Below are positions 40,068-40,325 of a stretch of 43,119 nt of DNA, piece after piece. The translations under genes were made by a program, and so were the position numbers. The first letter of the stretch is position 1. The number at the start of each line of letters is the position of its first letter. The DNA is from a virus. The stretch lies in UHGV virus genome UHGV-0017337; one strand, 5' to 3'. The notes beneath the pieces are model-generated. The model did not search any database, was not told the origin of the DNA, and saw only the letters and a list, made by a program, of their open reading frames with translations.

Positions 40068-40325
40068 ATGAATTTTGGTGAAGCAGTTACGATGATGAAC
40101 ATCGGTCATAAAGTTGCCCGTAATGGTTGGAACGGTAAAAGTATGTTTCTGTTTTTGATAGCAGGTGATTCCTGGGGTTTTGAATGTGATATTGAAGGTG
40201 TGGATGGTTTGGATACTTTACCATTTGTTTGTATGAAAACGGCAGATAATAAATTAGTGCCTTGGCTTGCAAGTCAGACTGATGTTTTAGCTGACGACTG
40301 GAAAATAGTAGGTGATGTGAAATGA
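40068..40325 (+). CDS. DUF2829-like small protein (same family as Thoeris anti-defence Tad2), 85 aa
   Basis: Start at Met4 of track ORF; MNFGEAVTMMNIGHKVARNGWNGKSMFLFL ... PWLASQTDVLADDWKIV pattern as I recall for DUF2829. Confidence 0.4.
   Translation: MNFGEAVTMMNIGHKVARNGWNGKSMFLFLIAGDSWGFECDIEGVDGLDTLPFVCMKTADNKLVPWLASQTDVLADDWKIVGDVK

Follow-up and report, generated by a model that had tools for sequence, protein, structure and literature searches.

A predicted Tad2-type sponge for type I Thoeris signaling in a variable slot of a Sashavirus/Nonanavirus-type siphophage

The plus-strand open reading frame at positions 40068..40325 of the window, by which we mean the whole 43,119-nucleotide stretch of viral DNA analyzed here, raises the question of whether its 85-residue product is a phage sponge for an immune signal and, if so, which signal it captures. 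The reading frame runs from an ATG at 40068 to a TGA at 40323-40325 and encodes MNFGEAVTMMNIGHKVARNGWNGKSMFLFL...PWLASQTDVLADDWKIVGDVK. Re-translation returned a product identical to the one quoted in the original prediction, including the two sequence features on which that prediction had drawn, the N-terminal motif G13-x-K15-V16-x-R18-x-G20-W21-N22-G23-K24 and the C-terminal D76-D77-W78. A program-made list of reading frames places the start three codons earlier, at a GTG at 40059. The ATG is the better start, because a Shine-Dalgarno-like AAAGGTGA (40054..40061, + strand) ends 6 nt upstream of it and because homologs start with M-x-F-G. Its stop codon shares an ATGA (40322-40325) with the start of the gene that follows, and the upstream gene ends 1 nt short of the ATG at 40068, which places the gene inside a closely packed operon. 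A minus-strand frame at 40087-40272 (61 residues), itself unsupported and wholly inside this strongly supported coding sequence, was rejected as a shadow ORF.

The product is a stand-alone PF11195/DUF2829 domain by the agreement of reading frame, Pfam, PDB, structural model, and Foldseek. It matches all of the PF11195 profile (positions 1-73 of 73) at 90.1 bits and E = 1.4e-25, against a gathering cutoff of 25 bits; the family, formerly DUF2829, is now named "Tad2-like" or "Thoeris anti-defense 2-like." Its significant sequence matches in the PDB are Tad2 proteins exclusively and take in all of those with solved structures, headed by SPO1 Tad2 (8SME, E = 2.3e-17) and followed by HgmTad2/AcrIIA7, ModTad2, and SptTad2. 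With a Pfam E-value of 1.4e-25 and a PDB E-value of 2e-17, the likeness to Tad2 is far above chance. A protein-cluster search (≈5.8 billion proteins) yielded 2,271 proteins with E ≤ 1e-5; PF11195 is present in all 120 of the homologs listed from this set, and the top identity among the matches listed is 81%. PHROGs 872 and 1048 match the protein equally well, neither with an assigned function. NCBIfam and PADLOC returned no match for the protein or its neighbors, a silence that is uninformative because anti-defense genes are not modeled in those libraries.

The predicted structure leads to the same family. An AlphaFold2 model built from an alignment of 110 homologs (53-81% identity) reached a pLDDT of 94.5 and a pTM of 0.82, with helices at residues 3-11 and 70-74 and strands at 15-18, 27-31, 53-57, 63-65, and 78-81. 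This is the Tad2 topology of an N-terminal helix, an antiparallel β-sheet, and a short helix preceding the last strand. In a Foldseek search of the PDB, Tad2 chains fill ranks 1-24 (probability 1.00; TM scores 0.71-0.82), and the first match after them has an E-value of 0.65. The DUF2829/Tad2 assignment, which had been made from the motif with a profile search and a structure prediction proposed as checks, is upheld by both, as it is by the PDB sequence matches and by the ligand contacts described below.

Because members of the family differ in their ligands, we mapped the crystallographic contact residues onto the window protein. Eight of the ten SPO1 Tad2 contacts to 1''-3' gcADPR are identical, with W25, N26, T65, D67, W73, S76, T78, and D79 of SPO1 corresponding to W21, N22, T58, D60, W66, S69, T71, and D72 here. 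At the other two positions, SPO1 I63 is M56 and SPO1 H71 is V64, which are the residues that HgmTad2 carries (M76 and V84). Measured against HgmTad2, 10 of 12 gcADPR contacts are identical, and all five positions with binding-abolishing mutations are retained; in that protein, W21A/N22A and S90A/T92A/D93A abolished gcADPR binding (Li et al., 10.1101/2023.11.15.567273). Two positions that make water-mediated contacts are each changed relative to one reference (SPO1 H71 to V64 and Hgm T82 to K62).

These contact positions are the most constrained in the 110 homologs, with W21, N22, G23, M56, T58, W66, and D72 invariant. Codons 20-24 (G-W21-N22-G23-K; 40125..40139, + strand), invariant in the 110 homologs, encode the β1-β2 loop over gcADPR and are the equivalents of SPO1 W25/N26 and Hgm W21/N22/G23. 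Codons 56-60 (M-K-T-A-D; 40233..40247, + strand) form a strand on the adenine side of the pocket, where M56 corresponds to Hgm M76, T58 to SPO1 T65, and D60 to SPO1 D67, and where M56, K57, and T58 are invariant in the homolog alignment. Codons 64-72 (V-P-W66-L-A-S69-Q-T71-D72; 40257..40283, + strand) supply a loop and short helix with contacts to ribose/phosphate and adenine; V64 is Hgm V84, and W66, S69, T71, and D72 are W73, S76, T78, and D79 in SPO1 and W87, S90, T92, and D93 in HgmTad2.

Specificity for type I Thoeris is not given by membership alone, because the Tad2 family is functionally plastic. Its known ligands include 3'cADPR (type I), His-ADPR (type II), N7-cADPR (type IV), cyclic dinucleotides (CBASS), and cUMP/cCMP (Pycsar), and about half of the Tad2 homologs tested in published screens inhibited type I Thoeris. 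For the window protein, type I specificity is a prediction based on residues. Its five nearest characterized relatives over the aligned stretch are SPO1 Tad2 (56% identity), Tad2_82 (53%), HgmTad2 (52%), Tad2_83 (48%), and Tad2_70 (47%), each of which has been validated as an inhibitor of type I Thoeris. Homologs that combine WNG with W-L/V-A/P-S-Q-T/A-D (SPO1, Hgm, #70, #71, #82, and #83) all inhibit type I, and the negative homologs #69, #78, #80, #81, and #84 deviate at pocket motif positions (Hadary et al. 2025, Table S2); of these, #69, #78, #80, and #84 were inactive against all seven systems tested (Hadary et al. 2025). From the Table S2 homologs, a small sample, we infer a correlation between pocket motif and phenotype.

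We put the probability at roughly 80% that the 85-residue protein captures the type I Thoeris signal as an SPO1-type tetrameric sponge, a reading in which binding, tetramer, and phenotype are all predicted from sequence and model. Four copies would assemble into a homotetramer, a dimer of dimers, with two symmetric pockets at the interfaces of protomers from different dimers, and each pocket would enclose one molecule of 1''-3' gcADPR (3'cADPR) and probably of 1''-2' gcADPR too. This gcADPR is the alarm molecule that ThsB, the TIR protein of type I Thoeris, produces upon infection; once it was sequestered, the NADase effector ThsA would stay off, NAD+ would not be depleted, and the phage cycle could be completed. 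Residues F3, A6, and G13 of helix α1 are conserved in the homolog alignment, which is consistent with a homotetramer but is no test of it. The monomer model has no α2 helix in the insertion; in SPO1 Tad2, that helix forms part of the dimer interface (Yirmiya et al., 10.1101/2023.05.01.538930).

Codons 32-52 (40161..40223, + strand) encode this insertion, a 21-residue loop between β2 and the next core strand that is the most variable region of the homolog alignment and, in homologs with long insertions, the site of a second pocket. The features of a HgmTad2-type dual sponge are absent from it. The insertion is 21 residues rather than ≈41, and of the HgmTad2 cyclic-dinucleotide contacts R31, S47, F70, and N85, only F70 aligns (with F53); R31 is I31, S47 is G47, and N85 falls in a gap. 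The insertion of SPO1 Tad2 is of similar, short length, and there the second pocket is closed off. Because of the short loop and the lost cyclic-dinucleotide contacts, we predict a single-pocket sponge of the SPO1 kind, without CBASS activity.

The same features weigh against the alternative that survives best, a sponge of the Tad2 family that mainly or additionally captures another signal, be it His-ADPR, N7-cADPR, a CBASS cyclic dinucleotide, or Pycsar cCMP/cUMP, bound either in the canonical pocket or in a further one formed by the insertion loop. Each of these activities is known from some member of the family, and Tad2_71, which inhibits types I, II, and IV, has VPWLASQTD(M/V)LA(E/D)DW in common with the window protein. 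Within the enterobacterial clade, moreover, several loop residues are fairly conserved (W36 in 85%, F38 in 74%, D41 in 73%, and G44 in 76%) and may mark a functional surface or simply packing. On the other side, the dedicated type II inhibitors MoTad2, #68, and #76 carry W-T/V-P-S-x-S/G-D, from which the WLASQTD and short loop of the window protein differ, yet the WLASQTD-bearing Tad2_71 does inhibit type II. The two type IV inhibitors, #71 and #79, have in common the loop motif PDE(H/N)SKMT(S/A)PY, which the window protein lacks, and for the short-loop homolog #82, type I Thoeris is the one system against which activity was validated. We consider a different main or additional ligand unlikely and keep a type I Thoeris sponge as the preferred reading.

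The genomic surroundings bear on whether such a sponge would be an accessory gene. The gene had been described as lying beside rdgC; the rdgC homolog itself is present (38994..39911, + strand; PF04381, E = 4e-113) and forms the left anchor of a variable slot, and a single 52-residue ORF (39908..40066, + strand) stands between the two, so that the description is approximately right. This ORF, directly upstream of tad2, is a gene of the Sashavirus-like lineage with homologs in 24 clusters, for example in phage PJ16, and had no match in Pfam, PHROG, or PADLOC. It was rejected as a co-transferred partner of tad2, being a lineage gene that is present with and without tad2 downstream, and it is not related to the 48-residue gene that precedes tad2 in another phage. 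On the other side, the ATGA overlap couples tad2 to a conserved orphan of 111 residues (40322..40657, + strand; phrog_1229, E = 9e-39) that is limited to this phage lineage, with 17 homolog clusters. Its AlphaFold model is all-helical, with seven helices and a pLDDT of 93.7, and its invariant residues include W11, G15-E16, R49-R50-C51, and N81-W82; searches of the PDB gave neither a sequence nor a fold relative (best Foldseek E = 3.5).

The tad2-like gene belongs to a block of small plus-strand genes spanning 36693-40657. A strong terminator-like hairpin with a 7-bp stem containing six G-C pairs, followed by TTTTTATTT (40666..40685, + strand), marks the end of the operon, and a terminator is annotated at the matching position in phage Sergei. 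The best σ70-like promoter match of the region lies upstream of the block; it is TTGACA-17-TATATT at 36439..36467 (+ strand), which agrees with 11 of 12 consensus positions and is a consensus match only. Early expression of the block is plausible from its layout, although promoter-like sites in the region are no commoner than in shuffled sequence.

Other small genes of this region can be described briefly. A 52-residue ORF at 37207-37365 (+ strand) has two cysteine pairs (C-K-H-E-W ... C-K-L-C-G-K-H), an arrangement suggestive of a zinc ribbon, and had no Pfam match. Tiny hydrophobic ORFs of the same operon at 37702-37797, 37925-38140, and 38621-38767 (+ strand; 31, 71, and 48 residues) resemble membrane peptides, and a Pfam scan of the 71- and 48-residue ORFs gave no match. 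On the minus strand, the probable large terminase gene (34599-36587) scores below threshold for Terminase_6N (19.9 bits against a cutoff of 22), and a small terminase candidate (41249-41944) is suggested by synteny with the annotations of Bas82 and Sergei, with no Pfam match. The 4.6-kb block of opposite-strand small genes splits these two packaging-gene candidates, an arrangement common to Sergei and Bas82.

By its overall sequence, the window is a Sashavirus/Nonanavirus-type (9NA-like) siphophage with ≈95% identity over 25 kb to BDX09P1, Bas82, and PJ16. Within this lineage, the slot between rdgC and the conserved 111-residue gene is variable. The slot is empty in Bas82, holds an unrelated 85-residue gene in Sergei, and holds the 52-residue ORF and tad2 in the window, where its junctions are sharp at ATGA overlaps; in other contigs it contains the 52-residue ORF alone, the 52-residue ORF with tad2, or extra inserts of ≈250 nt. 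We located it at 39908-40325 in the window, at 3307-3310 in locus L001, 3406-3663 in L002, 3001-3562 in L006, and 3001-3664 in L012, and also in L025 and L027. In L012, tad2 is followed by a gene matching PF25180, "phage antiviral trigger protein Gp54," and the slot downstream of rdgC could be a hotspot for counter-defense genes. The Sergei gene, gp06, was considered as a diverged Tad2 on account of its equal length and position and was rejected, its sequence being unrelated and without a Pfam match; it had no PADLOC match either.

The tad2 allele occurs in no genome-level relative of the window in the GenBank phage collection, and among 60 rdgC-anchored IMG/VR loci, nine of them with rdgC identity of at least 80%, no Tad2-like gene lies within 2.5 kb. 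Three metagenomic contigs (L012-L014) show the order rdgC, 52-residue ORF, and tad2, with an allele of 80 residues that is 65% identical. Comparison of the window with L012 revealed a mosaic profile of DNA identity, 91-93% over the 52-residue ORF and tad2 codons 1-10, 53% over codons 11-55 (window 40098-40232; L012 3191-3320), and 84% over codons 56-78, with no similarity downstream of tad2. This mosaic profile suggests that the central part of tad2, including the ligand loop and the insertion, was swapped by recombination.

Elsewhere, close tad2 alleles occupy unrelated phage contexts, as expected of a mobile accessory gene. A near-identical donor of the allele was not found in phage genomes, E. 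coli genomes, or IMG/VR, and the best phage match at the protein level (73%) is in an unrelated siphovirus. Partial DNA relatives occur in just 8 of the 5,426 complete genomes of E. coli, with 73-85% identity over 29-77% of the gene and each annotated as "DUF2829 domain-containing protein"; from these comparisons a prophage donor in E. coli genomes is not evident. A further relative, a 65%-identical Tad2-like gene in Escherichia phage Louie (PQ850616.1, 37157-37399), bears the GenBank label "anti-CRISPR protein," probably the disputed AcrIIA7 name carried over and likely a misannotation.

An accessory counter-defense role fits this context of a variable slot, a small-gene operon, absence from close relatives, and an intragenic mosaic breakpoint. 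Part of the same context could be read differently, since the gene is dispensable in the lineage, as the close relatives without tad2 attest, and natural homologs such as #69, #78, #80, and #84 are inactive against all seven systems. On that reading, the protein would belong to the family but have decayed or been repurposed and lack sponge activity, being either a passenger or a participant in phage DNA metabolism beside rdgC. We judge this highly improbable: an intact ORF is preceded by a good ribosome-binding site and translationally coupled, confidence in the model is very high (pLDDT 94.5), and the pocket residues are all intact, whereas the inactive homologs have lost theirs. Adjacency to rdgC, moreover, is not kept in the family, close alleles lying beside lysis genes or in other phage types.

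The CRISPR-Cas systems of E. coli, Salmonella, and Klebsiella are of type I, and these hosts are not known to employ type II-A Cas9, which leaves the host range without an obvious Cas9 target. That the protein is an AcrIIA7-like anti-CRISPR inhibiting Cas9 (SpyCas9 in the definition of AcrIIA7) is hardly credible, despite Cas9 inhibition being the first activity reported for a DUF2829 protein, the label on the Louie homolog, and AcrIIA7 being among the PDB matches (9KZR, and 8KBI, deposited as "Inhibitor of Type II CRISPR-Cas system"), since Cas9 inhibition by HgmTad2/AcrIIA7 and other Tad2 homologs was not reproduced in vitro or in vivo (Li et al., 10.1101/2023.11.15.567273), the family has been argued to be anti-Thoeris and not anti-CRISPR (Yirmiya et al., 10.1101/2023.05.01.538930), and the 85-residue protein has no counterpart of the N-terminal extension of the AcrIIA7 proteins (150/151-158 residues), matching their C-terminal domain only.

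A type I Thoeris sponge remains the reading we prefer, and a broader conjecture, which we hold to be rather doubtful, would extend it. The enterobacterial short-loop clade, which includes the window protein, may catch a second or different signal (for example His-ADPR, N7-cADPR, or cCMP from E. coli Pycsar) through its moderately conserved W36-x-F38-x-x-D41-x-x-G44 loop or a retuned pocket and so act as a compact sponge against several systems. Alongside this, the slot downstream of rdgC may be a general counter-defense hotspot, in which case its other cargos (Sergei gp06, the 104- and 113-residue genes, and a Gp54-family gene) would be unrecognized anti-defense genes.

If the prediction of a type I Thoeris sponge is true, this coliphage of the Sashavirus/Nonanavirus type can evade type I Thoeris, and near-identical relatives such as Bas82, with its empty slot, presumably cannot. 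The window phage and Bas82 would then form a natural tad2-plus/tad2-minus pair from which to read the effect of one sponge gene on host range, an effect that is relevant to the choice of therapeutic phages. Our literature search found no published Thoeris phenotypes for Bas82, the BASEL immunity panel used on it being without Thoeris. Ligand specificity in the Tad2 family is the subject of active mapping, to which the allele adds a divergent sequence (at most 81% identity among the matches listed from ≈5.8 billion catalogued proteins).

Among the named Tad2 proteins, MoTad2/ModTad2 (PDB 8V3E, and 9EIB with His-ADPR) shares the fold (TM ≈0.75), the GWNGK loop, and 41% identity with the window protein but has WTPSVSD in place of WLASQTD; MoTad2 does not inhibit type I Thoeris and binds His-ADPR, plus cUMP/cCMP in a second pocket, which in sponges of its type is opened by an extended region following β2. 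HgmTad2, or AcrIIA7 (PDB 8KBI-8KBM and 8WJC; Li et al., 10.1101/2023.11.15.567273), is closer, with the same numbering of W21-N22-G23, an identical WLASQTD motif, and M76 and V84 where the window protein has M56 and V64. It is distinguished by a 41-residue insertion that forms the second pocket for cGG/cGAMP (R31, S47, F70, and N85) and, in its native form of 151 residues, by an N-terminal extension that the window protein lacks.

The closest architecture among the screened homologs is that of Tad2_82 (IMGVR_UViG_3300029495_000054, 80 residues), which has a short insertion, a VCMKTA strand, WLASQ(A/T)DMLADDW, and 53% identity and whose validated activity is against type I Thoeris alone (Hadary et al. 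2025, Table S2). This metagenomic protein differs in its loop sequence and in having alanine where the window protein has T71. SPO1 Tad2 (Gp34.65), whose structures were determined in the apo form (8SME) and with 1''-3' gcADPR (8SMF) and 1''-2' gcADPR (8SMG) (Yirmiya et al., 10.1101/2023.05.01.538930), is likewise a phage-encoded accessory gene product consisting of a stand-alone DUF2829 domain of ≈85-89 residues with a short insertion, 56% identical over the aligned stretch and with the same predicted fold (TM 0.71-0.78). The window protein departs from it in having methionine for I63 and valine for H71 at contact positions, in an unrelated insertion sequence (GDSWGFECDIEGVDGLDT versus SSDALASDFGFGFGEYINEPVFGN) with no predicted α2 helix, and in coming from a siphophage of a Gram-negative enterobacterial host instead of a Bacillus myophage. 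The gene is clearly a fairly divergent member of the well-characterized Tad2 family, with no new mechanism implied, and public databases already call similar proteins "Thoeris anti-defense 2-like."
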